Origin: Candidatus Omnitrophota bacterium
GTDB lineage: Bacteria > Omnitrophota > Gorgyraeia > Gygaellales > Profunditerraquicolaceae
DNA: 64,000 bases
Direction of reading: 5' to 3'
NCBI GenBank assembly: GCA_028715785.1
Contig: JAQURC010000007.1
Span: 22,884-86,883, forward strand
The notes under the pieces are model-generated. The model saw only the letters and a list, made by a program, of their open reading frames with translations, did no database searches and was not told where the DNA came from. A program made the position numbers and the translations under genes. Shown in pieces: positions 1,966 to 49,041 of this stretch (its first letter is position 1; each line of letters begins with the position of its first letter).

Positions 1966-2217
1966 AGATTAGATTAATATATTATACACAATAACCTAGG
2001 AGGGTCAATTAAAACAAAATGGATAGCGGGTCCTTCCTTAAGCGTCTGCCTTGCCTTGTTTTCTCGCAGGGACGCTTGTTTGCCCCTGCGCGGCAAACTG
2101 CGCTCGGGTTTCGGCCTCGCTCTGCCGGAGCATTTATTGTGGGCAGCCGTGCCCGCTCGGCCTGCAAACGCCCTGCTCGAAATCAAGCCAAGCCATCCGC
2201 TGATAATATATATAGAT

Positions 2218-2432
2218 GACCCTGCCAAGTTTCGCAGCGAATGTCGATTTTAGCCAATGGAGCTTGAGTATTCCGGGTATCCCGGTGGAGCAAAGCGACA
2301 ACACCGGGATGGCGAAGCTGTCTGAGGCCGTCTCCGCTAGAGCGGGACGGCCGAGTTCTGCAGCCACCGGAATACGAAAGATCATTGGCGTTAAAAAATC
2401 AACCTGAGCGAGAAACTTGGCAGGGTCATTTA
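2218..2432. ncRNA. Unclassified structured RNA, copy 1 (paralog of 27345-27559)
   Basis: A 16-bp terminal helix GACCCUGCCAAGUUUC/GAAACUUGGCAGGGUC encloses a series of internal helices: GUCGAUUUU/AAAAUCAAC, GCCAAUG/CAUUGGC, GUAUUCCGG/CCGGAAUAC, and hairpins CCCGGUG-14nt-CACCGGG and GGCCGUCUCCGC-UAGA-GCGGGACGGCC. All are maintained by compensatory substitutions in copy 2. GC-rich relative to flanks, with no ORF. Orientation is ambiguous: each strand gets one G.U wobble and one mismatch. Confidence 0.65.
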
Positions 2433-2441
2433 TGGGAAAAA

Positions 2442-3698
2442 TTAGAAATATTCCTGGTAAACTTCCTTGAAGCGGTTTATCGCTTTGAAAAATAAATTTT
2501 TGGCAGGCTTGACTAAAGGCGAACTCCCTACGGTCTTATTTTCTAAATCTTCACAGACCATTCCCAGGCAGGTCAGGTAAGTCAGGTATTTTTGCCCGGC
2601 TAAATCATTATTTTCCTTGACTAACGCGGCGATCTCCGGATTTTTAATCCGGCCGATCTTAACCGGAATACCCATTAAACTCTCCGTCATCTCGATGAAC
2701 CCATCGGTCAAGAGCGTTTTGCCGGCCATGACAAAATGATCAATTTCATGCAAAGCCACCTTTTTCTCTATGGCATCCTTAATCTGCGCGCAGATCAGGC
2801 GGCCGGAATTGGTGGTCATTAAAGCCACATCGCGTTGTTTCAGGGGTTTATAGAATTCATCTTTCTTGACCAAGATTTCCTTATTTTCCGCAATACTGCC
2901 GGCATCGCCGATAACTCCGTAAGAACGCTTGATATCTTCTGCCAGCTCAAAATTAATTTTTAATCCTTCCGAGAGCTGGGCTGTCATACTGTTGCCGCCT
3001 AAAGATAGGATCTGGATATCCTGCAGGAGCCCGTCTTTAAATATAAGCAGTTCCGTAACATCGCTGCCACAATCGCAAAATACGCTCAACCCTTTTTTTT
3101 CTTCCCTGCCAAACACTGCCTTGCTGGTAGCCAGCCCCGAAAAAGAAAGGTCCCTGATCTCATAACCGACCTGGCTGATAACCCGGCTTAAGCTCTGCAA
3201 GGAAGAGATCCTGGCGCAGACCAGATACAGGTCCACTTCCAGCCTGTGGCTGTATAAACCGATAGGATTAATAACATTGCTTTTGGAATCAATGGTGTAG
3301 CTTGACGGGATCACATGGATTATTTCCTCTTCCAAGCTGGAGCCAAGGATGCGCGCCTGTTCATTAGCGCTGGCTATATCGGTGGAGGTGATCACCTTAT
3401 TGCCGCGTTCGGCAAGCGGGATGATCGCGTGGCTGTGTTTGGTTAAGATATCCTTTCCGGAAAAATTAGCATGGACATACTTAATCCTCAATCCGGATCT
3501 GGTTTTCAGGCTCTTAATAATTTTTGTCAGGCAAACCACTAATTGCGTCGCATCGACAATCACCCCTTCTTTAACGCCGGAGGATGGCATAACATCAAGA
3601 AAAATATTCTCTATCCGGTTTTTCCTTATCTTTGCCAGGCAGCCTGCGATTTTATTCGAACCTATGTCTATTGCGCAAATATAATTATTATTTAACAT
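2442..3698 (-). CDS. ftsA: cell division protein FtsA (actin-like ATPase)
   Basis: 418 aa with an N-terminal ICAIDIGSNKIAGCLA phosphate-1 motif and SHS2 insert, the last gene of the dcw cluster. Confidence 0.9.
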   Translation of the reverse strand: MLNNNYICAIDIGSNKIAGCLAKIRKNRIENIFLDVMPSSGVKEGVIVDATQLVVCLTKIIKSLKTRSGLRIKYVHANFSGKDILTKHSHAIIPLAERGNKVITSTDIASANEQARILGSSLEEEIIHVIPSSYTIDSKSNVINPIGLYSHRLEVDLYLVCARISSLQSLSRVISQVGYEIRDLSFSGLATSKAVFGREEKKGLSVFCDCGSDVTELLIFKDGLLQDIQILSLGGNSMTAQLSEGLKINFELAEDIKRSYGVIGDAGSIAENKEILVKKDEFYKPLKQRDVALMTTNSGRLICAQIKDAIEKKVALHEIDHFVMAGKTLLTDGFIEMTESLMGIPVKIGRIKNPEIAALVKENNDLAGQKYLTYLTCLGMVCEDLENKTVGSSPLVKPAKNLFFKAINRFKEVYQEYF

Positions 3699-4476
3699 TG
3701 TTGAGCTTGATCACCGGCTCCTTAAACCTAAGGTCAATATATTTTATATTGCCCCACTCCTTACGCGCCTGGAGAATCAGGCCGCCTAAGATTATCATTT
3801 TTTGCCTGATATTACTTTGCCCTGTGCGCACCTCAAAACCCGCCCACTCTGTTTGGGCAACGGGTTTTGTATAATCGGCCGGCTGTTTGGGCAGAAGAAT
3901 GAAAAAACCCGCGCTCTCCGGGTCCGCCACATCAATTCTTTTCAAGGTAAAACCCTGAAAAGTTTTATTGGCTTTAAATTCCTTAATTATGCTTAAAGCC
4001 AGATCAATTTCAGCCCTTCTGTATCTTGTTCCCGGCTTGGGGGCAAATATCTTTGTTTCCAAGCCATAGACTACCGGCAGAGCCGCCTCCTCAATAGCCG
4101 CATTTGGATAGAACAACACCCCCTGCTCATCTATGGCAAAATCTTTATAGAATTTAACCAGGGCAAGAGGCTGGCGTTTCAGGAAATCCACAAATACGCA
4201 GTTGGGAAGTATCCGGGCAAGCCTGACCTTGCGGCAATCCGGGCAGCTTAAAATAGCCCTGCGGGATTCACCGTTTAAATCCAGGCTAAAAATATTCCTG
4301 CCTTTCAAATAATCAAACGACCTGTCGGAATTCCTCACGACAACCCGGCTAACGGCAAAGAAATCCGAACGCGTTAAAACCCTCCAAATATATCCTATTA
4401 TAAAAGAGAAGGCAAGTAAAATTATTGCCGTAAATAAAATAATCTTTACCGGAAAATTAAACCTTTGCTTTTTCAT
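3688..4476 (-). CDS. ftsQ: cell division protein FtsQ/DivIB (POTRA domain)
   Basis: 262 aa with a single N-terminal TM segment followed by a POTRA-like domain. Sits between ddl and ftsA as in canonical dcw clusters. Confidence 0.8.
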   Translation of the reverse strand: MKKQRFNFPVKIILFTAIILLAFSFIIGYIWRVLTRSDFFAVSRVVVRNSDRSFDYLKGRNIFSLDLNGESRRAILSCPDCRKVRLARILPNCVFVDFLKRQPLALVKFYKDFAIDEQGVLFYPNAAIEEAALPVVYGLETKIFAPKPGTRYRRAEIDLALSIIKEFKANKTFQGFTLKRIDVADPESAGFFILLPKQPADYTKPVAQTEWAGFEVRTGQSNIRQKMIILGGLILQARKEWGNIKYIDLRFKEPVIKLNNVK

Positions 4477-5401
4477 AACCTAATTCCAGCAGCTTAAGAC
4501 AGAGCCGGTTAAAATCTATGCCGATGATTTTGGCAGCCTTGGGCAAGAGGCTGGTTGCGGTCATCCCCGGTATGGTATTGACCTCCAGGACATAAGGCAA
4601 ACCGTCTTTACTCAATATGATATCCGTGCGCGAGCAGCCAAAACACCCCAGGAGCTTATGCGCCGCTAAAGCTGTTTGCTGGACTTTTTTAGCAAGGCCC
4701 TCCTCTAAATGAGCAGGGATAATATAATCCGTTAATCCCGCCTGGTATTTAGCTTCGAAATCAAAAAATTTATTTTTGGGGATAATTTCGATTACCGGCA
4801 AAGCCATCTCATCCAAAACCCCCACCGTCAACTCCCTTCCAAATATGTATTCTTCGATAATTATGCGTTCGTCAAACTGAAAAGCCAGTTCGATAGCCGC
4901 GGATATCCCTTTATCAGCCTCCACAAGCGAAAGCCCGATACTTGAACCGTGATTAGCCGGCTTGATTACCAAAGGCAGCCCGAGGTCATTTTCATAAATC
5001 CTGTTTTTCCCATAGGCTGATTTCTCTAAAAAATGGGATTTAGGCACGCACAACCCTGCGTCTTTGAATTTCTTTAGCGAACTGATCTTGTCCATAGCCA
5101 GCCGGCTGGCCGCGACTCCGGAAGCGGTATAAGGCAAATTCATTTTTTCCAGGATATCCTGGATTGAACCGTCTTCTCCAAAACGGCCGTGCAAAGCAAT
5201 GAATACGGAATTTAAATTATGGCTTTGAAGCCGCCGGATATTCTCTTGCGCATTATCAGTGGTTATATCAATACCTACCGCATCTACCCCCAATTCAAGC
5301 AGCGCGGATAATACGGCCTTGCCGCTTTTCAAAGAAATCCCCCTCTCGGAAGAAGGCCCGCCCATTAAAACCCCGACCCTGCCAAAATCCTTTATCTCCA
5401 T
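4457..5401 (-). CDS. ddl: D-alanine--D-alanine ligase
   Basis: 314 aa with an ATP-grasp fold (GVLMGGPSSERGISLKSG, EVNTIPGMT). Confidence 0.9.
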   Translation of the reverse strand: MEIKDFGRVGVLMGGPSSERGISLKSGKAVLSALLELGVDAVGIDITTDNAQENIRRLQSHNLNSVFIALHGRFGEDGSIQDILEKMNLPYTASGVAASRLAMDKISSLKKFKDAGLCVPKSHFLEKSAYGKNRIYENDLGLPLVIKPANHGSSIGLSLVEADKGISAAIELAFQFDERIIIEEYIFGRELTVGVLDEMALPVIEIIPKNKFFDFEAKYQAGLTDYIIPAHLEEGLAKKVQQTALAAHKLLGCFGCSRTDIILSKDGLPYVLEVNTIPGMTATSLLPKAAKIIGIDFNRLCLKLLELGYEKAKV

Positions 5402-6273
5402 ATTTTTATCTCTGGCTGCAAATTAATTTTAAATCTCTCTTTTACTTTTCTGCGCATTAAATCCATAAGCGACAAAACATCGCCGCTCTTTGCTTTACCT
5501 AAGTTTAGAATAAAATTTGCATGGACCCTGGAAATCAAGGCTGCGCCTTTTGTTTTCCCCTTTAATCCGCAGGCATCAATAAGTGAGCCAGCCGGAGATT
5601 TAGCCGGATTCTTAAAAACACACCCGGCATTAGGCAGGCTGCTGCCCTGAGTTTTGCTGCGCTTCAAAAGATATTCTTTGATTTTAAAAGCGATCCTCTC
5701 TTTATCCGCGGGATGTAATTTAAGTTTCGCCGAAAGAATAATATATTTATTTAAATTGGATTTCCGGTAAGCAAACTTTAATTTCCTGCCGGCCAAAAGC
5801 TTCTGCCTGCCGTTATAATCCAAAACGGATACTTCCTTGACTTGCTCCCCTATTGACTTGCCCCAGGCGCCGGCATTACCGGCCAATGATCCTCCCAGGG
5901 TCCCGGGGACTCCGGCAAGAAACTCTAAACCGGACAGGCCTTTATCTTTAGCAAATAAAATCAACTGATTTAATTTTAAGCCGCTTCCGGCTGTTATGCA
6001 AGTACCTTTATTGTCCAGACCTTTAAAATCCCGGCCGCTTAACTTAATTACCATCCCATCTATCCCGGAATCGCTGGCTAAAATATTACTGCCGGCTCCC
6101 AATATGAAAACTTTCACTTTCGCCTTCCTGGCACAGGCCAAGGCCTCTTGCAAACTTTTAAGGTCCCTTGGCTCAAAGAAGAACCTCGCCCTGCCGCCGA
6201 TCTTAAAACTCGTAAGATCGGCCAGCTTTATTCCGGTTTTTATTTCTTTATTTAAGTTTTTCGGCCAGAGCAT
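5392..6273 (-). CDS. murB: UDP-N-acetylenolpyruvoylglucosamine reductase
   Basis: 293 aa with an FAD-binding PCMH domain (KIGGRARFFFEP...ILGAGSNIL). Confidence 0.9.
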   Translation of the reverse strand: MLWPKNLNKEIKTGIKLADLTSFKIGGRARFFFEPRDLKSLQEALACARKAKVKVFILGAGSNILASDSGIDGMVIKLSGRDFKGLDNKGTCITAGSGLKLNQLILFAKDKGLSGLEFLAGVPGTLGGSLAGNAGAWGKSIGEQVKEVSVLDYNGRQKLLAGRKLKFAYRKSNLNKYIILSAKLKLHPADKERIAFKIKEYLLKRSKTQGSSLPNAGCVFKNPAKSPAGSLIDACGLKGKTKGAALISRVHANFILNLGKAKSGDVLSLMDLMRRKVKERFKINLQPEIKIWR

Positions 6274-7606
6274 CGGAAACCTTTACAATATCTCCTGCGC
6301 CTAGAGTAATCACCAGGTCATTCTCGCAGATAATCCCTAAAACATGCTCAAGGATATCCTCTTTAGGCAAATACAGGACTTCTTTATCTTTAGCGTGTTC
6401 CTTTATTTTTTCCATTAATTTCCGGGCGGCCACACCCTCTATGGGCTCTTCGCTTGCCGCGTAAATATCCGTAATAATCAGGTAATCCGACTGGTCAAAA
6501 GACTTGGCAAAATCATCTAAGAGCAGCTGCGTGCGGGTATAACGATGCGGCTGGAAGATAACAATCAAGCGCCCGGCTTTTAAATTAGCGATTGCCGCCA
6601 AAGTAGCTTTTATTTCCGAAGGATGATGGGCATAATCATCGATCACCAGGTATTTGTCACTCTTAAATTTTATCTCTAACCTGCGGCCGGCCCCTTTATA
6701 GCCTTCCAGGGTCCTGCGGATACAATCCAGATCAATACCCAGCTCCATGCCTAAGCCAATTACCGCCAAAGAATTTGAAATATTATGTTTGCCCCCCAGG
6801 GCCAGGTGGAAACGGCAGACAAATTTATGTTTAAAATAACAATCGAAATCCGAAACTAAACCGCTAAATGAAATATTCCTGGCGTTTATATCGGCGTTGC
6901 TATTTAAACCAAAAGACAGATGCCTGCCTTTATAGATGCTCATCATATTTAAAAGATTAGGGTCATCGGAACAGGTAAAAACACAGCCCCCTTTTTGAGT
7001 GCGCCCTATAAAAGAGTTAAAGGCCTCCAATTCATTATCGAAATTATGGTAATAATCCAAATGCTCCCGGTCGATATTGGTAATAATCGAATATTTAGGC
7101 GCATAATTTAAGAATGAACCGTCGGATTCATCGGCTTCGGCGACAAAAAAATCGCCATCCCCCAGGCAGGCATTGGTATCAATATTATTAAGTATCCCTC
7201 CGATAGCTACCGTGGGGTTTAACCCGGCCTCAAGCAGCATATAAGAAACCAATGAAGTAGTGGTAGTTTTACCGTGGCTGCCGGCAACGGTTATGGCGGT
7301 CTTGCCCTGCATCAGGCCGGCTAATGCCTCTGCCCTTTTAATCAGAGGCATTCCTAAAGCTTTGGCCCGCAGTATTTCGGGGTTATCCGCACCGATCGCC
7401 GAAGAATAAACCAGCACATCCTGGCCGGTAATATTTGAGGCGTTGTGGCCGATGGATATCTTGGCTCCCAGGCCTTTAAGCTCATCGGTAATATGGTTCT
7501 CCTTTAAGTCTGAACCGCTTACCTTAAAACCGCTTTTAAGCATTAGACGGGCGATCCCGCTCATCCCTATTCCGCCGATTCCGATAAAATGATAATATTT
7601 TTTCAT
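6248..7606 (-). CDS. murC: UDP-N-acetylmuramate--L-alanine ligase
   Basis: 452 aa with a Mur ligase N-terminus (HFIGIGGIGMSGIARLM) and the GSHGKTTTTS P-loop. Confidence 0.92.
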   Translation of the reverse strand: MKKYYHFIGIGGIGMSGIARLMLKSGFKVSGSDLKENHITDELKGLGAKISIGHNASNITGQDVLVYSSAIGADNPEILRAKALGMPLIKRAEALAGLMQGKTAITVAGSHGKTTTTSLVSYMLLEAGLNPTVAIGGILNNIDTNACLGDGDFFVAEADESDGSFLNYAPKYSIITNIDREHLDYYHNFDNELEAFNSFIGRTQKGGCVFTCSDDPNLLNMMSIYKGRHLSFGLNSNADINARNISFSGLVSDFDCYFKHKFVCRFHLALGGKHNISNSLAVIGLGMELGIDLDCIRRTLEGYKGAGRRLEIKFKSDKYLVIDDYAHHPSEIKATLAAIANLKAGRLIVIFQPHRYTRTQLLLDDFAKSFDQSDYLIITDIYAASEEPIEGVAARKLMEKIKEHAKDKEVLYLPKEDILEHVLGIICENDLVITLGAGDIVKVSDALAEKLK

Positions 7607-8373
7607 TCTAAAATATATGTCTTCCAGGCGTTTTCAAAATCTTCCATACCGGCAAAAGAATATGCCTTTGATAAAGCTCTGGCTAAATTTTTATCGTCCC
7701 GCAGGCTCTGGCAGAAAAATACGAACCTGTCTCTGCCAAACTCTGAAATTAAATACTTTACCAGGCTATACGATTCCGCATAAAATAATTCTACCTTTGC
7801 CCTGTCTCTTGAACCGGACACCTCTGTCCGGCTTAACTCATCCAGGCTAATGAAATTACCCTGCCTTAGCTTATTGGCCAGATACGCCTTTACCGAAGAA
7901 ATATCCCTCTGCTGATAGCCGGCGACTCCTTCCTGGAGCCAAAGGGGGACGGCTGGATTATTAAAACCCACCATCTCGTTAAAAATAATATGCGCCAATT
8001 CATGCGGAAGGATATTATCCAAAAATCCCGGGGCGGTTTGAAAAGTCATAATTGTCTTGCTGGCGACATTTGCCTCTCCTGCCGACCAGTCCGCGGCATG
8101 GGTTTCTTTTTTGTATTCCTCATGGTTATTAAAGAGATAAATTTTTGCCCGGTTATCCCAGGTCCAAAAATTAAAACGGTTAAAGCCTAAATCCTCAGTA
8201 ATACTATTATAACAGTTCTCGGCTTTTTGAGCCAACTCATTGAGTGAATTTTCCGAGGCATCTTTATAAAAAACCACAAAATGCGTGCTTTTAAATACCT
8301 GCCAACCCTGGCCATCCGCAAAGACAGCCAATGGAAGCAACAAGAATATAAAGAATAATTTAAATCGGCGCAT
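7603..8373 (-). CDS. secreted HExxH zinc metallopeptidase-like protein (gluzincin/Peptidase_MA-like), embedded in the dcw cluster
   Basis: 256 aa with an N-terminal signal peptide (MRRFKLFFIFLLLPLAVFA). A HELAHIIF motif is followed 24 aa later by LWLQEGVAGY, giving an HExxH...E arrangement. The start overlaps the murG stop and the stop overlaps the murC start. Confidence 0.6.
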   Translation of the reverse strand: MRRFKLFFIFLLLPLAVFADGQGWQVFKSTHFVVFYKDASENSLNELAQKAENCYNSITEDLGFNRFNFWTWDNRAKIYLFNNHEEYKKETHAADWSAGEANVASKTIMTFQTAPGFLDNILPHELAHIIFNEMVGFNNPAVPLWLQEGVAGYQQRDISSVKAYLANKLRQGNFISLDELSRTEVSGSRDRAKVELFYAESYSLVKYLISEFGRDRFVFFCQSLRDDKNLARALSKAYSFAGMEDFENAWKTYILE

Positions 8374-9491
8374 TAATTTAAACTTAACACTTCCTTAGCT
8401 AATAAACAAGAGGCATCCGGGACAGAAAACTGCGCGTATGCCTGGCGCATGGCTTCTAGCTTCTCCGGATCTGCTAAAAATACATTTAATTTATCGCTTA
8501 ATTTTTCCACAGACAATTCCTCATCTTTGATGATCAGGGCGGCCCCGGCATCCGCCAGTATACGGGCATTGGCCTCTTGATGGCCGTAAGCAAAAGGATA
8601 AGGAATCAATATCGCCGGGATCCTGAATTTCTGCAATTCCGAGATTGTCGCCGCTCCCGAGCGGCAGATTACCAGGTCCGCTACGCTATAAGCATATTGC
8701 ATGGCCGGAAAAAATTCAAACAACCCGCAGCTTAAATCCAAAGAGCCATATTTTGATTTAAGCCGGGGATAATCCCGGGTTCCCGAAATATGTATCAGTT
8801 GCAGGCCGTCTTTTTTTGGATAAGCAGTTATTGCCTCAAAACAAACAGAATTTAACTTGACCGACCCCTGGCTTCCTCCGGTAATTAATATATTGAATTT
8901 TCCTTCCTTAAACTTAAAAAAATCCAACGCCTGCTTTCTATCTATCAGGATCAAATCCTTGCGCAGAGGATTACCCGTTACGGCAATTTTTTTAGCGGAT
9001 ATATTTAGATATTTATTTGTCTGGCTAAAGGACACCGCTACCCTGTCAGCCAACTTAGCCAATAACCGGTTTGCCCTGCCGGGAATAACATTCTGTTCAT
9101 GAATTATGGTTTTTATCCTGAATAACCAGGCCCAGAAGATCAGGGCTACAGTATTAAGGCTGCCGAATCCAACCACCACATCCGGCCGGAATTTTAAAAT
9201 AATCAGCATCCCTTCCCAGGCGCCCAATAAAAATGAACACGCGCCGGCGATATTCCTGCCGCTTAAATTAAAACTTAAAGCAGCCGCGTGGATGTATTTA
9301 ATTTGCGCAAATCCAACGGGGATATTATTATCCTTGCTTCTCTTTGGTAAGACTAAGAGCAAATCAGCGCATGAATCCTTTAATGCATCTACCAAAGCCA
9401 GCGCGGGAAAAATGTGCCCGCCGCTTGAGCCGCTGACAACCAAAACACGCATTAGTGAATCTCCGTTAAGGATACTCTCCGGTACGGGCAA
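8373..9491 (-). CDS. murG: UDP-N-acetylglucosamine--N-acetylmuramyl-(pentapeptide) pyrophosphoryl-undecaprenol N-acetylglucosamine transferase
   Basis: 372 aa with a GT28 fold (VVSGSSGGHIFPALAL...GGSQG). Confidence 0.9.
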   Translation of the reverse strand: MPVPESILNGDSLMRVLVVSGSSGGHIFPALALVDALKDSCADLLLVLPKRSKDNNIPVGFAQIKYIHAAALSFNLSGRNIAGACSFLLGAWEGMLIILKFRPDVVVGFGSLNTVALIFWAWLFRIKTIIHEQNVIPGRANRLLAKLADRVAVSFSQTNKYLNISAKKIAVTGNPLRKDLILIDRKQALDFFKFKEGKFNILITGGSQGSVKLNSVCFEAITAYPKKDGLQLIHISGTRDYPRLKSKYGSLDLSCGLFEFFPAMQYAYSVADLVICRSGAATISELQKFRIPAILIPYPFAYGHQEANARILADAGAALIIKDEELSVEKLSDKLNVFLADPEKLEAMRQAYAQFSVPDASCLLAKEVLSLN

Positions 9492-10560
9492 TGTTGATTA
9501 ATATGCCCAGGCTGACCATATCAAATATCAGCGAAGAACCGCCATAGCTGATAAAGGGCAGCGGTAAACCTTTCGTGGGAAAAACCCCGCAAGAAACACC
9601 GATATTTACAATCGCCTTAAGGGAAATCATCAGGACCAGCCCCAGGGCAAGAAAATATCCGAATTTATCCTGGGCATTCTTGATAATTTTAAGCCCCTGC
9701 TGGATAAAGATCATAAAGAGCGCGACTATTCCCAGTGTACCGGCCAAGCCCAGCTCTTCTCCGATAATCGAAAAAATAAAATCCGTGTGGGCGGCCGGAA
9801 GATAAAAAAGCTTCTGTTGTGAATGCCCAAGCCCCCTGCCGAATAATCCGCCGGAGCCGATGGCAATCTGTGATTGGATAATCTGAAAGCCCGTGCCCTT
9901 AGGGTCGAGCCAGGGGTTTAAAAACGCCAGGATCCTGCTGCGCCGGTAAGGGACTTTAAAAACCAAAAGATAAAGCGCCGGCAAACTGCAAAGCAATAAA
10001 CTCAAAATATAACTTCCTCTTGAGCCGGCGACAAAAAGCATGATCAGGATTACGCTGCCCAAAGCAATGACCGTACCCAGATCCGGCTGTAAAAGTATGA
10101 GCAAAGCGATTGCCCCCAATACGCATACCGGAGGTATAAATCCTTTAAGCAGCAGCTTGATCTTGTCTCCTTTGCGGCAAATAAAATCTGAAATATAAAT
10201 AATCAGCGCCAGGTTGGCAAACTCCGCCGGCTGGAAGCTGATAAATTTAAATCTAAACCAACGCCTGGCTCCGGAGACCTCCCTGCCGATGCCGGGAATA
10301 AGCACTAAAACAAGCAGGGCAAAAGCGATCCAAAGCAACAGGCGGGCGTGTTTTCTGAACAGGTGATAATCAACAAGCATGACTAAGAAAGTCAATAATA
10401 GCCCTGCCAGTAAAAAAAATAAATGCCGTTTTAAAAAATAAAAACTATCTCCGTACTTCTCCCAGGCATAAATACTTGAAGAGCTATAAATCATCACTAT
10501 GCCGATACAGATAAGCAGGACTGATATAGTAAACAGATTAATCCGTGTTTTTCTAACCAT
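9466..10560 (-). CDS. ftsW: peptidoglycan glycosyltransferase FtsW (SEDS family)
   Basis: 364 aa, polytopic, with SEDS signature regions. Sits in the dcw position between murD and murG. Confidence 0.88.
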   Translation of the reverse strand: MVRKTRINLFTISVLLICIGIVMIYSSSSIYAWEKYGDSFYFLKRHLFFLLAGLLLTFLVMLVDYHLFRKHARLLLWIAFALLVLVLIPGIGREVSGARRWFRFKFISFQPAEFANLALIIYISDFICRKGDKIKLLLKGFIPPVCVLGAIALLILLQPDLGTVIALGSVILIMLFVAGSRGSYILSLLLCSLPALYLLVFKVPYRRSRILAFLNPWLDPKGTGFQIIQSQIAIGSGGLFGRGLGHSQQKLFYLPAAHTDFIFSIIGEELGLAGTLGIVALFMIFIQQGLKIIKNAQDKFGYFLALGLVLMISLKAIVNIGVSCGVFPTKGLPLPFISYGGSSLIFDMVSLGILINIARTGEYP

Positions 10561-11830
10561 CTATTGAGGCTGCGCTGCCTAAATTCAGCACAATTTCCTT
10601 AAAGGCCCTGCCCCGGTCTTCGTAATCTTTGAACATATCAAAACTCGAGCACATCGGCGATAATAATACCGAATATCCCGGCTTGGCCAAAACAAATGCC
10701 TTCTCTACCGCCTCCTTTAAACTGGAGGCATTTTGTATCGGAAATTCACCGCCAAGCGCAGCGGCGATCTTCTCTTTTGCCTCTCCGATAAGGACCAGGT
10801 GTTTAACCTTGTCCCGGGCGCACTCGCGGATTACCCGGTAATCAATCCCTTTGTGCCTGCCTCCGGCAATAAGGATTATGGGGGTATTGATATTCTCAAT
10901 TGCCCAGATTGCCGAATCTGCCGTCGTTGCTTTGGAGTCATTGATAAATTTTACCCCGTCAATTTCCCGCACATCCTCCAGGCGGTGCTGGATCCCTTTG
11001 AATTTACCAAAGACATCCAGAATCAACCCTTTATCAATCCCCAATATTCTCCCGACACTAAGGACTGCGCTCTGATTAGGGTTGAGGCCATCCTGCTTGT
11101 TAAAAAAAACGACTTTTGATTTCGCCTGGGCGGCAATCTCTTTAAGCAAAGCGTCATCCGCGTTTAAAATTAAAAAATCATCCTGGCCCTGATTCAGCAT
11201 AATCCGCTTCTTGGCATCCAAATACTCCTGCATGTTATTATAGCGGTCAAGATGATTGGGGGTTAAATTCAAAATCACCGCAATTTTAGGCTTAAAGCCC
11301 CTGATCGTCTCAAGCTGGAAGGAGCTTACCTCAAGGACAACAAAATCGCCCTCCTGCATTGCCTCCACTTCACCGCAGAATGGATTGCCGATATTTCCGC
11401 ATACAAAAACTCTCTTTCCTGCCGCAGCCAAAACTTTTCCGATCAAGGTAGTCACCGTGGTTTTCCCGTTTGAACCGGTTACCGCGATAATCTGGGCAGG
11501 ACATAAGATACTTGCCACCTCAATTTCACTGACGACCGGTATATTAAATTCGCCTGCCCACTTGATCGGCAGGGCATCCGCAGGCACCCCGGGAGAGATA
11601 ACCACTAAATCCGCCTGCTTGATAAAATCCCGGCTGTGCCTGCCCAATTCAACTGAAATATCGCCTGAACAAAGTTTGGCGCAAGCCTCTTTGGTCTGCG
11701 CATTATCTTTGTTATCCGTAATGCTCACGGAAGCCCCCAGCCCATGCAACAGGTTAACGCAGGCTATCCCGGAGCGGGCAAGGCCGACAATGGTTATCTT
11801 TTTGTTTTTAAAGTAACTGCTATTACGCAT
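10553..11830 (-). CDS. murD: UDP-N-acetylmuramoylalanine--D-glutamate ligase
   Basis: 425 aa with a Mur ligase fold (ITIVGLARSGIA...VTGSNGKTTVTT). Confidence 0.9.
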   Translation of the reverse strand: MRNSSYFKNKKITIVGLARSGIACVNLLHGLGASVSITDNKDNAQTKEACAKLCSGDISVELGRHSRDFIKQADLVVISPGVPADALPIKWAGEFNIPVVSEIEVASILCPAQIIAVTGSNGKTTVTTLIGKVLAAAGKRVFVCGNIGNPFCGEVEAMQEGDFVVLEVSSFQLETIRGFKPKIAVILNLTPNHLDRYNNMQEYLDAKKRIMLNQGQDDFLILNADDALLKEIAAQAKSKVVFFNKQDGLNPNQSAVLSVGRILGIDKGLILDVFGKFKGIQHRLEDVREIDGVKFINDSKATTADSAIWAIENINTPIILIAGGRHKGIDYRVIRECARDKVKHLVLIGEAKEKIAAALGGEFPIQNASSLKEAVEKAFVLAKPGYSVLLSPMCSSFDMFKDYEDRGRAFKEIVLNLGSAASIDG

Positions 11831-11833
11831 AGG

Positions 11834-12922
11834 TTATCTGATTTTTAACGTAACTAAGGTAAAGAGGGCAAGTAAACCGGCAACGATCCAGAACCTGACA
11901 ATTACTTTGTTCTCAGGCACATCCAAAAACTGAAAATGATGGTGCAGCGGGGCGATTCTAAAAATACGCTTTTTGGTCAGCTTGTAAGTTCCCACTTGCA
12001 ATATAACCGAGAGCGCCTCCAGGACAAATATGCCTCCGACAATGATCAGCAGCATCTCTTTTTTGATCAATAACGCCACTGTCCCGATAGCCCCGCCTAA
12101 GGCCAGCGATCCGACATCTCCCATGAAGATCGAGGCAGGATAACAGTTAAACCAGAGAAAACCCAAACCCGCTCCCACGATACTGGCGCAAAAAATAGTC
12201 AGTTCTCCGGCGCCTTTGATATAAGGGATCAGGAGGTAATTGCTTAAATTAAGGTTGCCGGAAACATAGCTTAACACGCTAAAGGCAATGCCCACCATCA
12301 CCATGATGCCGATAGCCAGCCCGTCTAGTCCGTCGGTGAGATTCACGGCATTGGATGAACCGGTAATTACCAGGATCACAAATAAAATATACAAACCGTC
12401 CAAATCAAAACCGCCGCCTTTGAGAAAAGGAATCTCAAGCCTGGCATTATACTGAGTATCCATAATGATAATTATACCCAAGATCAAACCCAGGATAACC
12501 TGGCTGGCAAGTTTTACGCTGGGAGAAATGCCCCTGGCCTTGTTTTTTATCTGCTTAAAATAATCATCCATAAATCCGGTCAAGCCCAGCCAAACAGTGC
12601 TGAATAAAACAACCCAAATACAGCGATGGGTAATATCCGACCAGAGCAGGGTTGAAACTACCACTGCCCCAAGTATAAGAATCCCTCCCATCGTCGGAGT
12701 GCCCTGCTTATTGTGATGCAGCTCATCCAGCTTCAAGCTATCCGCTTTATTTATCTTCTCTCCGACTTTAAGCGCCTTTAATTTTTTGATTAACGGCGGG
12801 CCGAAAATCAGGCTCAGGATAAAAGCAGTCAAGGCAGCCATGACCGCGCGAAAGGTAATGTAGCGGAATATATTGAAAGCAAAAATTAAATCCCTAAGAG
12901 GATAAAATAAATGGTAAAGCAT
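11834..12922 (-). CDS. mraY: phospho-N-acetylmuramoyl-pentapeptide transferase
   Basis: 362 aa polytopic membrane protein with MraY motifs (NAVNLTDGLDGLA, VGSL). Confidence 0.9.
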   Translation of the reverse strand: MLYHLFYPLRDLIFAFNIFRYITFRAVMAALTAFILSLIFGPPLIKKLKALKVGEKINKADSLKLDELHHNKQGTPTMGGILILGAVVVSTLLWSDITHRCIWVVLFSTVWLGLTGFMDDYFKQIKNKARGISPSVKLASQVILGLILGIIIIMDTQYNARLEIPFLKGGGFDLDGLYILFVILVITGSSNAVNLTDGLDGLAIGIMVMVGIAFSVLSYVSGNLNLSNYLLIPYIKGAGELTIFCASIVGAGLGFLWFNCYPASIFMGDVGSLALGGAIGTVALLIKKEMLLIIVGGIFVLEALSVILQVGTYKLTKKRIFRIAPLHHHFQFLDVPENKVIVRFWIVAGLLALFTLVTLKIR

Positions 12923-14283
12923 TAAACTTTAAAAACCTCCTCCATTTTCATCGACCGGGACCCCTTTACCAGGATTATATCGGAAACGCCCGGAGATATT
13001 TTATCGAACAGTAAATCCCTGGCCTGCGGGGCGCTGGCGCAACAAAATATATCTTTACGCTTAAAGCCTCCCTCTGCGGCTGCCTGGGCCGTGATCCGGG
13101 CCAAGCTGCCCACTGCTACTAACACATCACAGGTATTAGTTATACTCCTGGCGATTTGCCTATGCAATAATTCTTTTTGCCTGCCTAACTCCAGCATATC
13201 CCCCATAATTAAAATTTTTTTACCTTTGCACTTGGCGGCAGTTAGAGCCGTAAGCGCCGCTTCCAAGGAAAGGGGATTGGAATTGTAGGTATCGTCGATA
13301 AAAGTAAGCCCCTTAAATTCAATAAGATTAAGCCTGCCCTTGGGAAATTTGAAAGCAGCCAGCCTTGCGGCAATTTCAGGATAACTCAAGCCCAATATCC
13401 TGCTCACCGAAATTGCGGCTAAGGCGTTATAGATATTATAATAGCCCAAGGTGGATAATGCAAAAACAAATTTGGAGTTGACTTCAAATTCTAATTTAGC
13501 GTTACGGAATTTGATCGCGGATGCGCAAAAATCGCTCTTCTCGTTAATCCCGTAAGTAAAAACATGCGCCCCCTTATCCTTGCGTGTAATTATACGTTTG
13601 AGCAATTTGTCGTCGGCGCAAACAACCGCAATTCCGGGCTTGGCTAAATTATCCAGCAGGGTTGATTTCTCTTTCAAAACCCCGTTTAAATTTCTTAAAA
13701 ACTCAAGGTGGCTTAAGCCGATATTGGTAATTACCCCGATATTAGGACAGGCAATCCTTGCCAGGTAATCGACCTCCCCGAAATGATTAGTGCCTATCTC
13801 AACTGCCGCAAAATCATCTTTTTCCGAAAGCCGGATTAATGTCTGGGGCAGGCCGATCTGATTATTCTTGGTCCCTTCATTTTTCAATACCCGGGCATTG
13901 CCTGATAAAATCCAGGCGATCATCTCTTTAGTTGTGGTCTTGCCGTTTGAACCGGTAACGGCAATAACCGGCAGCTTAAATTTTTGCCTCTGGAACCTTG
14001 CTATGTCCCCTAAAGCCAAAGTCGTGTCTTTTACCTTAACCACCGCTATCCCTTCAGGGATCGGGCATTCAGGCATTCTTTCGACAATTAAACCGCCGGC
14101 TCCTGACTTTAAAGCCCCGGCAATAAAATCATGGCCGTCAAAATTATTTCCCTTTAAAGCCAAAAACGCCTCCTGCGGCTTTATTCCCCTTGAATCGGTA
14201 GAGACAGTCTTCAGCCTATCCGCCGGCTTTCCCTGGATAAGCTTACCGCCTGCGGCTTTGATTATTTCATTGACTTTAAACAC
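12922..14283 (-). CDS. murF: UDP-N-acetylmuramoyl-tripeptide--D-alanyl-D-alanine ligase
   Basis: 453 aa with a Mur ligase fold (VIAVTGSNGKTTTKEM). Confidence 0.9.
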   Translation of the reverse strand: MFKVNEIIKAAGGKLIQGKPADRLKTVSTDSRGIKPQEAFLALKGNNFDGHDFIAGALKSGAGGLIVERMPECPIPEGIAVVKVKDTTLALGDIARFQRQKFKLPVIAVTGSNGKTTTKEMIAWILSGNARVLKNEGTKNNQIGLPQTLIRLSEKDDFAAVEIGTNHFGEVDYLARIACPNIGVITNIGLSHLEFLRNLNGVLKEKSTLLDNLAKPGIAVVCADDKLLKRIITRKDKGAHVFTYGINEKSDFCASAIKFRNAKLEFEVNSKFVFALSTLGYYNIYNALAAISVSRILGLSYPEIAARLAAFKFPKGRLNLIEFKGLTFIDDTYNSNPLSLEAALTALTAAKCKGKKILIMGDMLELGRQKELLHRQIARSITNTCDVLVAVGSLARITAQAAAEGGFKRKDIFCCASAPQARDLLFDKISPGVSDIILVKGSRSMKMEEVFKV

Positions 14284-17371: not shown

Positions 17372-17380
17372 AGAAATCTA

Positions 17381-17435
17381 GGGGACGGTTCTGTTTTTCC
17401 GTCATCTGGCTAGGTTGAAAAATAGAACCGTCCCC
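17381..17435 (-). promoter_or_regulatory. Extended stem-loop filling the ftsL-ftsI intergenic gap
   Basis: GGGGACGGUUCU pairs with AGAACCGUCCCC (12 bp) and continues into UUUUUC/GAAAAA. This gives about an 18-bp stem with a 17-nt loop, ending 10 nt upstream of the ftsI ATG. On the minus strand it is not followed by a clean U-tract, so it is more likely an attenuator, processing site or RBS-occluding structure than a terminator. Confidence 0.5.
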
Positions 17436-17446
17436 TTTGCTTTTTA

Positions 17447-27247: not shown

Positions 27248-27344
27248 TATTAGTTCAACAAGTATACCAGAAATCCAGAGTATGCGCAATAATAGAACTC
27301 TGCGCGAGTCCAAGGCTCGCCACCCGCTAACAACATGCATAAAT

Positions 27345-27559
27345 GGCACTGACAAGTTTCGCAGCGAATGTCGATTTTAGCAAAAGCAGCTTGAGCAGTG
27401 AAGGTATCCCCGTGGAGCGGTTAGCGACAAAACGGGGACGGCGAGGATGTTTGAGTGGTTTTTGCAAGAGCAAAAACCACGAGTTCCGCAGCCGCTGAAC
27501 TGCGAAAGACCTTTTGCGTTAAAAAATCGACTTGAGCGAGAAGCTTGGCAGGGCCATTT
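27345..27559. ncRNA. Unclassified structured RNA, copy 2 (paralog of 2218-2432)
   Basis: About 70% identical to copy 1. Every helix is kept by compensatory changes: GCAAAAG/CUUUUGC replaces GCCAAUG/CAUUGGC, GCAGU/ACUGC replaces GUAUUC/GAAUAC, CCCCGU/ACGGGG replaces CCCGGUG/CACCGGG, and the 11-bp hairpin GUGGUUUUUGC-AAGA-GCAAAAACCAC replaces GGCCGUCUCCGC-UAGA-GCGGGACGGCC. Single-stranded blocks (UUCGCAGCGAAUGUCGAUUUUAGC, AGCGACAA, GAGUUC, GCAGCC, CGAAAGA, GCGUUAAAAAAUC) are conserved. Confidence 0.65.
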
Positions 27560-27616
27560 GTAACATGCGGCGAAAAATTTCAGCGACGGAAGTAAAAGAC
27601 GGAAAGCTTAAGTTAG

Positions 27617-32259: not shown

Positions 32260-32274
32260 CGCATTAATTTTAAT

Positions 32275-32392
32275 CTTCTCTCATCTGGACTATCACCATC
32301 GGCCCTGGAATCTCACCAGATCTGCTCGCCACTGAACTAATGGCAGGCTCGCGGGCTAAACCGCCGGTAAGGATTTACACCTTGCCCTAAAG
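32275..32392 (-). promoter_or_regulatory. FMN riboswitch (RFN element) aptamer controlling ribBA-ribH-nusB-PHP-ribD-ribE
   Basis: The minus strand reads ...AGGGCAAGGUGUAAAUCCUUACCGGCGGUUUAGCCCGCGAGC...CAGAUCUGGUGAGAUUCCAGGGCCGAUGGUGAUAGUCCAGAUGAGAGAAG. This matches the conserved RFN cores GGGCAGGGUGAAAUUCCC..ACCGGCGGU..AGCCCGCGAGC and GGUGAGAUUCCGGAGCCGACGGUAUAGUCCGGAUGGGAGAAG. Confidence 0.85.
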
Positions 32393-32406
32393 ATTAATTG
32401 TTTATT

Positions 32407-48939: not shown

Positions 48940-49041
48940 AAACCCCTTGACTAATGGGGAGTATTACAACAGCTTTATGGACATCTGTATACGGCTTATA
49001 AACAGGTCAATATCATCTTTGATTAAAACATCAATAAATTA

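Follow-up and report, generated by a model that had tools for sequence, protein, structure and literature searches.

Element B, present twice in the window (the whole 64,000-nt stretch of DNA that was analysed), is a previously undescribed multi-copy structured element of Omnitrophota. Comparison of close relatives reveals gain, loss, inversion, truncation and recombination of B, which behaves as a dispersed repeat that comes and goes rather than as a fixed RNA gene. By analogy with ORF-less copies of HEARO/omega-RNA and with REPINs, we propose that B is a new non-autonomous, structured interspersed element that operates at the level of RNA, a reading to which we assign a probability of about 0.45. 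The unusual feature of B is that its fold is under strong selection in every copy while the element turns over like a repeat, inverts and recombines by modules.

Two copies in the window share one fold

An earlier note, made from the letters of the window, had described the two loci as a paralogous pair with about 70% identity. Both loci are real, but a model-based alignment places their identity at 76% (164 of 215 aligned positions), with 85% identity in unpaired and 72% in paired columns. The description as a pair was an understatement, as the two copies belong to an Omnitrophota-wide multi-copy element that occurs in a mosaic with the modules A' and C (Table 1). A 21-mer common to both copies occurs exactly twice in the window, against an expectation of zero, and the fold energies lie far below those of shuffled sequences (z = -10.5 for copy 1 and z = -7.2 for copy 2). 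Both copies fold alike into a long rod (P1-P5) that is capped by a three-way junction with P6 and P7. The minimum free energy of copy 1 is -112.3 kcal/mol on the + strand and about -110 kcal/mol on the opposite strand, each a stable rod. Copy 2 reaches -93.1 kcal/mol on + and -77.8 kcal/mol on -, and this advantage of about 15 kcal/mol suggests that wobble pairs favour the + strand.

Table 1. Positions of element B, its parts and its companion modules in the window. Helix coordinates are those of copy 1; percentages are pair cells that are paired.
Feature	Position	Strand	Remarks
Element B, copy 1, whole	2212..2433	+	Model match 2211-2436; R1 score 247.6 bits
Element B, copy 2	27341..27561	+	Model match 27338-27564; R1 score 229.3 bits
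P1, 5' strand	2215..2233	+	Closing helix with 2412-2430
J1/2 (GCAGCGAAU)	2234..2242	+	Putatively kink-turn-like with J2/1 (2404-2411, CUGAGCGA)
P2	2243-2251 with 2395-2403	+	92.7%
P3	2253-2259 with 2383-2389	+	98.5%
P4	2263-2265 with 2378-2380	+	99.4%
Tandem G.A separating P4 and P5	2266-2267 with 2376-2377	+	Copy 1
P5	2268-2276 with 2367-2375	+	88.7%
P6 hairpin	2280-2287 with 2302-2309 (whole 2280..2309)	+	Carries variable extension P6b
P7 arm	2310..2366	+	P7a 2310-2313 with 2363-2366; P7b 2316-2317 with 2358-2359
P7c hairpin	2326-2337 with 2342-2352	+	Conserved internal loop UGUYUGA/GAGUU in P7 arm
Element A/A'	2019..2205	- (probable)	GC-rich rod, ~190 nt, directly upstream of copy 1
Fragment of A closing strand (...CGAGTCCAAGGCTCGCCACCCGCTAA)	27300..27330	-	Upstream of copy 2; blastn mapping of A pieces and sequence comparison
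Half of element C (..CGGCGAAAAATTTCAGCGACGGAAGTAAAAGACGGAAAGCT)	27562..27615	+	Abuts 3' end of copy 2

All of the helix swaps that had been listed for the pair were found in both loci. From copy 1 to copy 2, P3 changes from GCCAAUG/CAUUGGC to GCAAAAG/CUUUUGC, P5 from GUAUUC../..GAAUAC to GCAGU../..ACUGC, and P6 from CCCGGUG/CACCGGG to CCCCGUG/AACGGGG, and the 11-bp hairpin of P7c is re-coded, with loops UAGA and AAGA. The closing helix of copy 1, reported as 16 bp, is longer than that, extending over 22 nt with 95% complementarity (2212-2233/2412-2433). Across the 72 modelled pairs, 47 are unchanged between the copies, 13 have changed on both sides and still pair, and 2 have become wobbles; the other 10 are non-standard in one copy, several of them being G.A pairs, with the P7c cells among them affected by register.

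It is almost certainly wrong to read B as a small protein gene or the likeness of the copies as chance. Both copies do start with an ATG at the start of P1, which opens reading frames of 63 and 51 aa that have the N-terminal peptide M(T/A)L(P/T)SFAANVDFS in common. However, coding potential was rejected because of frameshifting indels: the frame is lost after about 25 codons through 1- and 2-nt indels between the two ORFs, and indels across the family are not multiples of three. Furthermore, the ATG is missing in two members (L004 and L014), and the substitutions in helices are compensatory. Chance is excluded by the shared 21-mer, the shuffles and the covariation.

Anatomy of element B

Element B is about 220 nt long and contains about 72 modelled pairs. 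Within P1, the outer boxes AAUG/CAUU and CUG/CAG are conserved while the positions between the boxes covary, and 15 of its 19 pairs have changed on both sides in the family alignment. Next to P1, J1/2 and J2/1 (GC / AGC / GA / AU.. opposite ..U / GA / GC) appear to form a kink-turn-like motif, judged by comparison of their sequence with the published K-turn consensus. In copy 1, the putative C-stem would consist of G2234-C2409 and C2235-G2408, followed by the bulge A2236 G2237 C2238, the tandem pairs G2239.A2407 and A2240.G2406, and then A2241-U2405; a 2-nt GA bulge lies directly after the 2-bp C-stem. The invariance of the bases in this region stems in part from the search pattern, which prescribed them in most members, so that covariation provides no test there. 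Two members that were detected by the model only likewise have AGCGAAUG and UGAGCGAG.

Tandem G.A pairs, which separate P4 from P5 in copy 1, substitute for Watson-Crick pairs in P2, P5 and P7a of other members. P6 is paired in 92.9% of its cells, with double changes in 6 of its 8 pairs, and its extension P6b is in many members a longer stem with a GNRA tetraloop cap (loops GACA, GAGA and GAAA occur in the alignment). P7a, P7b and P7c all covary, with the first pair of P7a being C-G in 34 members and U-A in 20. The three-way junction at the tip is tight, with only 3 unpaired nucleotides.

Covariation across the family and the folded strand

The family of B comprises 57 members from MAGs or metagenome contigs, every one of them placed with the Omnitrophota, and as far as sampled B is restricted to Omnitrophota, with several copies per genome. 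Members were collected through one strict sequence pattern or through synteny, so that estimates of copy number and of taxonomic range are poorly constrained. With a loosened pattern, 81 matches were obtained in IMG/VR, which we attribute to chance because none scored with the covariance model. Pattern matches in bins of 'Bathyarchaeia', 'Saccharibacteria' and Poribacteria and on one metagenome contig (L002 group, L003/L060, L007 and L057) were set aside as non-members, and two inverted copies on a palindromic, indel-ridden contig (L025) were treated as an assembly artefact.

Selection on RNA structure, as opposed to a recent DNA repeat, had been suggested from the two window copies, and an unfitted and a model-fitted alignment of the family agree on selection for a single-strand fold. 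In a MAFFT alignment that was not fitted to structure, 84.6% of pair cells are paired and double changes occur in 50 of 72 pairs; none of 500 shuffles reached the observed values. In the model-fitted alignment of the 57 members, 89.8% of pair cells are paired, compared to 36-47% with slid partners, and both sides have changed in 52 of 72 pairs; here, too, none of 500 shuffles reached the observed values. Non-canonical pairs are strongly asymmetric across the family (109 G-U versus 48 A-C, and 175 G.A/A.G versus 10 C.U), and the R1 model gives the scores of Table 1 on the + strand compared to 45 bits on the - strand. The G-U and tandem G.A pairs show that the + strand is the folded strand.

The view that B belongs to no known RNA family held when the window was scanned with cmscan: no Rfam 15 family matches either copy, and at the gathering threshold only an FMN riboswitch and a tRNA were returned. 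At E<=10, both copies and the A module gave chance-level matches only. Two Rfam models touch the loci, each in one copy only: Poribacteria-1 (RF03113; 16.7 bits, E = 1.9, gathering threshold 74.2 bits) and RAGATH-28 (RF03052; 17.1 bits, E = 1.1, gathering threshold 45.3 bits). Both were taken as chance because they are far below threshold, confined to a single copy and absent from the other members scanned. An Rfam scan of other members and of the A and C modules gave no reproducible match, and a search of the literature on Omnitrophota noncoding RNAs and repeats and for conserved sequence strings found nothing relevant.

Gene context

The window copies are flanked by ftsA, yggS, ribE and tRNA-Pro. 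Every gene that flanks either copy lies on the - strand, and B is therefore not the cis leader of a same-strand gene in the window, as had been stated before. A riboswitch or leader role was also rejected for the family: the downstream same-strand genes are unrelated (uvrC, metF, msbA, helicase and ttcA-like), and no such gene follows the majority of copies. Of 38 contexts with both flanks complete, 17 have B antisense to the genes on either side, and the orientation of B relative to gene direction has no clear bias (17 against 10).

It is very unlikely, in our view, that B is a cis-acting intergenic RNA of the REP, ERIC, BOX or Correia-like kind that, transcribed together with the adjacent genes, would provide a site of processing, stabilise the mRNA or hinder read-through. 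Such a role would suit elements that fill very short intergenic spaces, and B does so: in 12 cases its 3' end falls between -7 and +8 nt from the stop codon of a convergently oriented gene. The modular mosaic of A, B and C resembles BIME and BOX, and the stable rods formed by both strands of copy 1 also fit this role. However, most operon-internal mRNAs would carry the reverse complement of B, whereas selection, judged by the G.A and G-U pairs and the GNRA loops, is on the other strand. Tertiary-type motifs and a three-way junction exceed what a stabiliser or terminator needs, and the neighbouring genes belong to unrelated classes.

A family of trans-acting, protein-binding or scaffold RNA genes of the host, related as sibling paralogs, is a serious rival that we judge possible rather than probable; the earlier note had considered a trans-acting or protein-binding RNA the most likely. 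Under it, turnover would reflect birth-and-death and ectopic recombination between repeats, and the RNA would work in an RNP or self-assemble. This account is favoured by a fold that is kept in every copy, including diverged copies within one genome, by the K-turn-like loop, tandem G.A pairs, GNRA loops and three-way junction, and by the roomier upstream side of B, where the median gap is about 190 nt compared to about 35 nt downstream. In contrast, it is weakened by the lack of a conserved promoter at a fixed distance and of a terminator: a -10-like hexamer is not enriched at a fixed distance upstream relative to the opposite flank across the family, and no promoter or terminator was found beside the window copies, where a consensus scan detected only the yggS promoter on the other strand. 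Moreover, B is often squeezed antisense between co-directional genes; the gap to a neighbouring start codon is as small as 13 nt (L006), and some copies overlap a stop codon.

Genes that might act on B were sought by ORF clustering and by-eye inspection of 1.5-4 kb around about 50 loci. No transposase, integrase, RAYT/Y1, reverse transcriptase or IscB/IsrB/TnpB gene adjoins B at these loci, which contain housekeeping genes and orphan small ORFs with no recurrent neighbour. The earlier statement that no reverse transcriptase gene lies nearby agrees with precomputed Pfam annotations, which contain no RVT domain in seven syntenic loci of relatives. Inverted pairs of B enclose ordinary genes (metF, cooS and one for a secreted protein). 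Together with a Pfam scan of seven adjacent orphan ORFs, these surveys gave only housekeeping genes, small ORFs without annotation and one Mrr-like nuclease. Insertions adjoin orphan ORFs, AbiE toxin-antitoxin genes, the Mrr-like nuclease and a methylase. The window also contains a degraded IS3-family transposase, the visible end of which has no similarity to P1 that is obvious by eye.

The fold could alternatively be used as single-stranded DNA, as a substrate for recombination or transposition by a tyrosine recombinase or an HUH/Y1 enzyme in the manner of attC sites, REPINs or IS200/IS605 ends, although we regard this as unlikely. Such use would explain the cassette-like accessory genes beside B. 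It is also consistent with the strand-specific fold, with its conserved boxes at the base of a long, imperfect hairpin and its variable, branched tip, and with the inversion of modules, which have inverted repeats of 16-60 nt on their flanks. Stability in DNA is likewise a property of tandem G.A pairs and of mini-hairpins of the GCGAAGC type. On the other hand, integrase, RAYT and Y1 transposase genes are absent near every copy examined, a clear bias in orientation relative to gene direction is lacking, and the recurrent GNRA caps and K-turn-like loop are hallmarks of RNA.

Among these DNA substrates, attC sites are typically 57-141 nt long, carry R''(RYYYAAC)/R'(GTTRRRY) boxes and are arranged in cassette arrays with an IntI gene. 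B resembles them in the priority of structure over sequence, in its imperfect, strand-specific hairpin with conserved basal boxes and variable or branched tip, and in having small orphan and toxin-antitoxin cassettes as neighbours. In contrast to attC sites, B is far longer and carries RNA-type motifs. An integron attC identity was rejected: the box positions of P1, including those corresponding to AAC/GTT, covary away from the consensus, and copies are solitary, with neither co-oriented cassette arrays nor an adjacent integrase.

Gain, loss and recombination among relatives

Syntenic loci of relatives differ in their content of B at both window sites. Between ribE and tRNA-Pro, where about 330 nt are inserted in the window, one relative has an empty site (L155, RibE 89% identical) and another has A+B in the opposite orientation (L156, RibE 90%). 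Between ftsA and yggS, the window contains both modules in reverse complement (rcB-rcA), whereas A-B-C is inverted relative to the flanking genes in L064 and L009. At the same site, L151 (FtsA 93%) keeps only a 40-nt remnant of B plus an AbiE cassette, L153 contains nothing, and L154 has a solo A. Between the window and L064, A+B at this site is 78.5% identical, compared to 74% for flanking coding DNA, which suggests purifying selection in place.

Three different loci in one groundwater assembly (L043, L051 and L064, with similar coverage) are identical over about 200 nt and 97.8-99.1% identical across the whole element. The identity begins at the first base of P1 and stops after the C tail. 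Recombination is evident in the B of L156, a mosaic in which P1 and P7b/c match copy 1 whereas P3, P5 and P6 match copy 2. P1 resembles terminal inverted repeats in its conserved AATG..CATT ends, and the flanks beyond it often extend the palindrome; no consistent direct repeat that would represent a target-site duplication was found beside the copies. A classical MITE, which derives from a DDE transposon, has terminal inverted repeats and a target-site duplication, an interior without structural selection and mismatches that are symmetric between the strands. B differs from such an element in that its internal helices covary (52 of 72 pairs) and its mismatches are strand-biased. In several assemblies, B-type elements coincide with contig ends, and they also coincide with variable sites that hold accessory or defence cassettes.

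These comparisons bear in both directions on host RNA genes. Better conservation of A+B than of flanking coding DNA at the ftsA/yggS site is in their favour. Against them, the closest relatives have either no B or a remnant only at both window loci, and the sharp ends of the duplicated units coincide with P1, which would be hard to obtain by segmental duplication. Copies within one genome that are 76% identical yet fully compensated call for long-lived, individually selected lineages, which are no less expected of an RNA that benefits the host than of a selfish element.

A proposed interspersed RNA element

Under the reading that we prefer, the + strand of B, most probably as RNA, folds into a long, irregular rod that ends in the three-way junction. 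Selection acts on this fold in every copy while the element behaves at the level of the genome as a non-autonomous interspersed repeat, with ends that are sharp at the base of P1 and with copies that are duplicated or homogenised between loci. B recombines helix by helix with its paralogs and travels together with the A' and C rods. The comparisons above demonstrate the fold and its strand, the family, the turnover, the sharp ends and the mosaicism, whereas use as RNA rather than single-stranded DNA, a partner encoded in trans and the mode of spread are inferred. We propose that transcription would proceed from flanking or read-through promoters, that a protein whose gene lies elsewhere in the genome may recognise the folded RNA, as in the ORF-less HEARO/omega-RNA and REPIN-RAYT systems, and that the conserved AAUG...CAUU end of P1 may mark a site of processing or recognition. 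Frequent antisense placement and the absence of a detected promoter are a counterpoint to the predicted transcription of the + strand. Near-identity between loci could likewise reflect gene conversion instead of transposition, and spread of B by movement is accordingly a tentative part of the proposal.

HEARO and other OMEGA RNAs have a complex fold of about 200-300 nt, dispersed copies and presence/absence polymorphism, and many are ORF-less. B shares with them a covariation-supported fold, dispersed copies, presence/absence variation, ends that coincide with those of the RNA fold, and many copies that lack an adjacent ORF. However, the HEARO and IS605-orfB models of Rfam do not match B even at E<=10, and IscB, IsrB or TnpB adjoins none of the approximately 50 B loci. 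OMEGA RNAs carry at one end a variable guide segment that is templated by the DNA beside the transposon; in B, the 5' and 3' ends pair with each other in P1, which leaves no obvious free guide segment.

A REPIN is a near-symmetric doublet of short inverted REP sequences, whereas B, at 220 nt, is strongly asymmetric: only one of its strands has the G.A and G-U pairs, and its rod includes a K-turn-like loop and leads to a three-way junction. REPINs are non-autonomous, hairpin-forming interspersed repeats that persist in lineages, are extragenic, occur in either orientation and keep their pairing (PMC3116915, PMC3337134). B is similarly non-autonomous and interspersed and keeps its hairpin pairing, but no RAYT gene was seen by its loci and its copy number is seemingly modest.

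The BIME of E. coli, the BOX of S. pneumoniae, ERIC and Correia elements are modular intergenic mosaics with variable orientation, presence/absence variation and stable transcript hairpins. B, A' and C resemble them in modular mosaicism, variable orientation and presence or absence among relatives. To our knowledge, these repeats do not display deep covariation, GNRA caps or strand-specific non-canonical pairs; in contrast, the modules of B keep their fold at 76% identity.

6S RNA is a rod of about 200 nt whose 5' and 3' ends pair to close it, with a large central bubble between the closing and the terminal stem, and some bacteria have two paralogs. B is a rod of similar size with the same kind of closure, but its largest internal loop appears to close into the K-turn-like motif, and B is multi-copy and dispensable at a given locus. 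We rejected a 6S identity given that B has no open central bubble, ends in a three-way-junction tip and has no Rfam 6S match at E<=10. In a retron, the RT gene lies immediately downstream of msr/msd, and separate stem-loops are joined only by a1/a2 pairing. This candidate was rejected as well, no RT gene lying beside B at the loci examined and the halves of B pairing along the whole rod P1-P5.

Few large bacterial RNAs combine a complex fold with the lack of a known function (OLE, GOLLD, ROOL, HEARO and raiA), and such RNAs have been a recurrent source of new biology; HEARO was later recognised as the IscB omega-RNA. B is structurally comparable to them, with its approximately 72 pairs, putative K-turn-like loop, tandem G.A pairs, GNRA caps and three-way junction. 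The Omnitrophota are an uncultured phylum of ultra-small, possibly host-dependent bacteria. B makes it testable whether bacteria contain ORF-less, structure-dependent mobile RNA genes beyond OMEGA and REPIN, and the covariance model and the 57-member alignment enable a census across Omnitrophota genomes.

Companion modules A' and C

Module A', which recurs beside B in more than 20 loci and is also found alone, probably folds on the - strand, such that A' and B stand head to head. In an alifold consensus of A', double changes occur in 24 of 37 pairs, and U-G wobbles lie on the A' strand. A' gives weak R1 matches through the closing helix and the GCGAGAAA junction, both of which are common to A' and B.

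It is conceivable, although doubtful, that B, A' and C together supply the RNA of a hitherto undescribed system of the Omnitrophota, whose ORF-less structured RNA genes would spread as discrete units and work with a protein encoded elsewhere. Forms that such a system might take include a new class of guide or scaffold RNA for the enzyme of a mobile element, a SINE-like bacterial retro-element, and a new multi-copy RNP or self-assembling RNA. Any of these forms, if true, would make B a bacterial RNA element of a new kind and not just another version of the REP-type repeats.

The C tail that follows copy 2 also follows B in L043, L051, L053, L064, L033 and L001, and full C rods are found at L006:5930-6112 and in L151 at approximately 11268-11445.

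The two window copies of B share one fold

An earlier note had described a pair of ~215-nt structured RNAs with covarying helices, and this observation held up: the two copies of the ~220-nt element that we call B align end to end, adopt the same fold and share a 21-mer that occurs exactly twice in the window versus 0 expected occurrences. In a model-based alignment, the copies are identical at 164 of 215 positions (76%), with 85% identity in unpaired columns versus 72% in paired columns. Predicted fold energies lie far under those of shuffled sequences for both copy 1 (-112.3 kcal/mol, z = -10.5) and copy 2 (-93.1 kcal/mol, z = -7.2). The common architecture is a single long irregular rod, comprising P1, an internal loop and P2-P5, which ends in a three-way junction with hairpin P6 and the composite arm P7a/b/c. 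All of the helix swaps listed in that note are present. Among the 72 modelled pairs, 47 are unchanged between copies, 13 differ at both partners without loss of pairing, 2 become wobbles and 10 are non-standard in one copy, of which several are G.A and the P7c cells are influenced by register. A small ORF beginning at the P1 ATG of both copies was rejected, as its frame is lost through 1- and 2-nt indels and shows no conservation.

Coordinates of B, its companion modules and other features. Unprefixed positions are those of the window; L-numbers are handles for genome or metagenome contigs that hold members or syntenic relatives.
Feature	Location	Strand	Description
B copy 1	2211-2436	+	
B copy 2	27338-27564	+	
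P1 closing helix, copy 1	2212-2233 / 2412-2433		~19-22 bp; arms 95% complementary
Module A beside B	2019-2205; L008, L022, L027, L058, L062, L064, others		Window module directly upstream of copy 1; GC-rich, ~190 nt
Solo A	L011, L017, L019, L039, L052, L056, L063, L065, L154		
Module C, whole	L006:5930-6112; L151 ~11268-11445		Third rod, ~180 nt complete
Module C	L049:3657-3826		
Half C	27562-27615		Follows 3' end of copy 2
FMN riboswitch	32269-32398	-	110.3 bits; canonical, upstream of ribBA
GGGGACG(G/T) hairpin	17380-17436; L151:12945-13015; L153:11265-11335; L018, L032, L054, L019, L040, L044		Upstream of B in the last six contigs
Palindrome CCTGCCTGCCGGCAGGCAGG	L064:12452-12477, 12943-12968; L009, L040, L043, L047, L063		

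B is a new family with covarying helices

Members of B were retrieved with a two-part sequence pattern from the internal loop, which matched 9 loci in species-representative genomes and 60 in metagenomes and left 55 distinct members once chance matches were discarded; because these scans of public DNA collections used one strict pattern, estimates of how wide the family is, how many copies it has and how conserved the loop is are biased. The structure was curated by hand and scored on a MAFFT alignment not fitted to it. Pair cells were paired in 84.6% of cases versus 37-47% with slid partners, double-sided changes occurred in 50 of 72 pairs, and the observed values were reached by none of 500 column shuffles. 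A covariance-model search, as the earlier note had proposed, yielded more members. The model R1 scores copy 1 at 247.6 bits and copy 2 at 229.3 bits, and it picked up diverged copies that the pattern had missed (L013:12612-12855 and L030:2892-3122). When the 57 members were aligned with R1, 89.8% of cells paired, compared with 36-47% after partners were slid, and double changes were seen in 52 of 72 pairs. Fitting to R1 biases this alignment in favour of the model, and the unfitted one agrees in outcome. We conclude that the + strand of B adopts a new single-strand fold under strong constraint, known so far only from Omnitrophota, where B is present in several copies per genome.

The absence of a known family, which had also been claimed from the sequence, was borne out by Rfam 15, which at gathering thresholds returned only the FMN riboswitch and tRNA across the whole window and no match at the B loci. 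At E<=10, the two loci gave only RAGATH-28 (17.1 bits, threshold 45.3) and Poribacteria-1 (16.7 bits, threshold 74.2), each on a single copy, and scans of other members returned neither of these nor any other family. IMG/VR viral contigs held zero B members, and literature searches found no description of B. The FMN riboswitch belongs to the same rib operon whose 3' end adjoins copy 2.

Pairing biases identify the folded strand, and motifs suggest RNA

Paired columns of B hold 109 G-U/U-G versus 48 A-C/C-A combinations and 175 G.A/A.G versus 10 C.U/U.C. The + strand of copy 2 folds 15 kcal/mol better than the - strand, and the reverse strand scores only ~45 bits with R1, which together with the pair biases indicates that the window + strand is the folded one. 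In different members, tandem G.A takes the place of two Watson-Crick pairs in P2, P5 and P7a, a replacement familiar from structured RNAs, and P6 is often lengthened by a stem with a GNRA cap (GACA, GAGA or GAAA). The internal loop between P1 and P2 has GC-AGC-GA-AU facing U-GA-GC, and from its sequence would fit the kink-turn consensus of C-stem, 3-nt bulge, tandem G.A and NC-stem. Both model-only members keep AGCGAAUG and UGAGCGAG; loop bases are otherwise fixed by the search pattern. We infer that B folds as RNA rather than DNA, and consider it improbable that a recombinase or transposase acts on the fold in single-stranded DNA. A simple DNA MITE was rejected on the basis of the internal covariation and strand-biased non-canonical pairs.

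The invariant GAUUUUAGC of P2/P3 (2374-2402 and 27374-27402) reads TAAAAT on the - strand, where copy 2 has a promoter-like TTCACT-17-TAAAAT with an upstream TG, directed out of B towards A' (module A on the opposite strand) and tRNA-Pro, which may be coincidence.

No cis partner gene or fixed promoter was found beside B

FtsA and RibE homologs assign the window to Omnitrophota, and its RibE is 100% identical to a protein from a 94.8-kb MAG contig in NCBI. Genes are packed very densely, and the - strand carries 58 of the 62 ORFs. Copy 1 is flanked by yggS on one side and on the other by the 3' end of ftsA, where the dcw cluster ends, and copy 2 is flanked by tRNA-Pro(CGG) and the ribE 3' end; given the strand of these genes, both copies are antisense to all neighbours. 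In the window and in the relatives alike, ftsQ-ftsA close the dcw cluster and yggS and proC come next, ftsZ being absent from this position (window 2442-14750 and 1306-1965; L151, L153, L154). Across ~50 loci, the flanking genes, classified mostly via clustering and by eye, are unrelated housekeeping genes plus scattered orphan small ORFs and defence-type genes. In fully flanked contexts, neighbour orientations relative to B are -/- at 17 loci, +/+ at 10, -/+ at 6 and +/- at 5. The downstream gap is tiny (median ~35 nt) and the upstream gap larger (median ~190 nt), and in 12 cases the distance from the 3' end of B to a convergent stop codon is between -7 and +8 nt. No -10-like hexamer was found at a fixed distance upstream of B members, and neither a sigma-70 promoter nor an intrinsic terminator was found on the + strand beside either window copy. 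Neither a cis partner gene nor a fixed promoter was found for B at these loci. A purely cis role on mRNA appears very unlikely.

B turns over at shared loci and has recently been copied as a discrete unit

Close relatives differ in what they carry at shared sites. Between ribE and tRNA-Pro, L155 (RibE 89% identical) has 55 nt and none of the modules A, B or C, which makes it an empty site. In the window there is a ~330-nt insert that comprises half C, B and a fragment of A, each in reverse orientation with respect to ribE, and L156 (RibE 90%) has full A and B (229.8 bits) in the opposite orientation, then an inverted fragment of the A 5' strand. At the ftsA/yggS locus, L064 and L009 share synteny with window 2442-14750, and their A+B segment is inverted relative to flanking genes and bounded by inverted copies of the A 5' strand. 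At this locus L151 (FtsA 93%), which belongs to the same genome as L156, has just the first ~40 nt of B, together with a C rod and a toxin-antitoxin cassette of AbiE type; L153 has a 114-nt spacer holding only a terminator-like hairpin, and L154 a solo A with an orphan ORF. At a third site, in L006, C, an orphan 158-aa ORF and B lie between two genes spaced 8 nt apart in the window. B has been gained, lost, inverted, truncated and modularly recombined among close relatives.

Three contigs of one Hainich groundwater assembly (L043, L051 and L064, 12-13x coverage), which on sample and coverage appear to derive from one genome, carry B at three different loci. These copies are identical over ~200 nt and 97.8-99.1% identical for the whole element, and identity starts at the first base of P1 and stops after a 48-nt C tail; L024 and L069 hold a second near-identical pair (97.3%). 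The ends of B are sharp. In L156, B is a mosaic with P1 and P7b/c as in window copy 1 and P3, P5 and P6 as in copy 2 (24 versus 28 diagnostic sites). In each helix both strands come from the same parent, which points to paralog recombination that was constrained by pairing or then selected for it.

The turnover, sharp duplicated ends and missing promoter weaken the reading of B as a classical stable sRNA gene. A trans-acting RNA family of the host, subject to rapid birth and death, would agree with the fold being kept in all diverged copies and with A+B being conserved at least as much as adjoining coding DNA at a shared locus, and we consider it rather unlikely overall. Our tentative preference, at a probability of roughly 45%, is that B is a non-autonomous, RNA-level structured interspersed element, the fold of which would be recognised by a factor encoded elsewhere. 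B behaves like ORF-less HEARO/omega-RNA copies and like REPIN-RAYT populations (PMC3116915, PMC3337134), but membership tests place it in neither group.

Contigs end inside or ~30-170 nt from A, B or C modules in L004, L034, L036, L054, L063, L027, L069 and L156, consistent with these repeats breaking short-read assemblies. Accessory or defence-type genes adjoin modules or share variable sites (L151:11655-12922, L029, L038, L046, L155:6651-8240), including AbiEii-type toxin-antitoxin pairs, an Mrr-like nuclease and a Dam-like methylase (by eye), and a large serine recombinase next to tRNA-Pro; these sites behave as cassette-gain hotspots. A degraded IS3-family transposase (~48070-48960, +), with a truncated OrfA and with stop codons and a frameshift in OrfB, lies in the window's single large non-coding stretch, and comparison by eye found no obvious similarity between this remnant and the ends of B.

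Companion modules and other repeats

B is associated with two other rod-like modules. At more than 20 loci, module A is found upstream of B, invariably on the same strand, and there are solo copies as well. A forms a rod with a closing helix of ~28 bp, 24 of 37 alifold pairs are double-changed, and it contains four conserved GAGCG-containing segments. The wobble and G.A pairs of A sit on the strand opposite to B, on which A probably folds, so the functional form A' would be head to head with B, their 5' ends only ~10-25 nt apart. A' has the ..UUUC/GCGAGAAA.. junction in common with B, as well as a closing helix resembling P1, and these shared features account for weak matches of A to the B model. 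Rfam returned no match to A, a second uncatalogued structured element. Half of module C adjoins the 3' end of many B copies and is the 48-nt tail copied along with B; in L051, B lies between C-type arms, which lengthen P1.

Two further repeats were observed. A ~20-bp hairpin, GGGGACG(G/T)...C(C/A)GTCCCC (z ~ -8.8 in the window), recurs after genes and in the 'empty' ftsA/yggS spacer of L153 and may represent a terminator-type repeat. Copies of A, and in L064 also the yggS coding sequence, contain an inserted GC-rich palindrome of 20-26 nt, CCTGCCTGCCGGCAGGCAGG, which looks like a separate tiny mobile palindrome.
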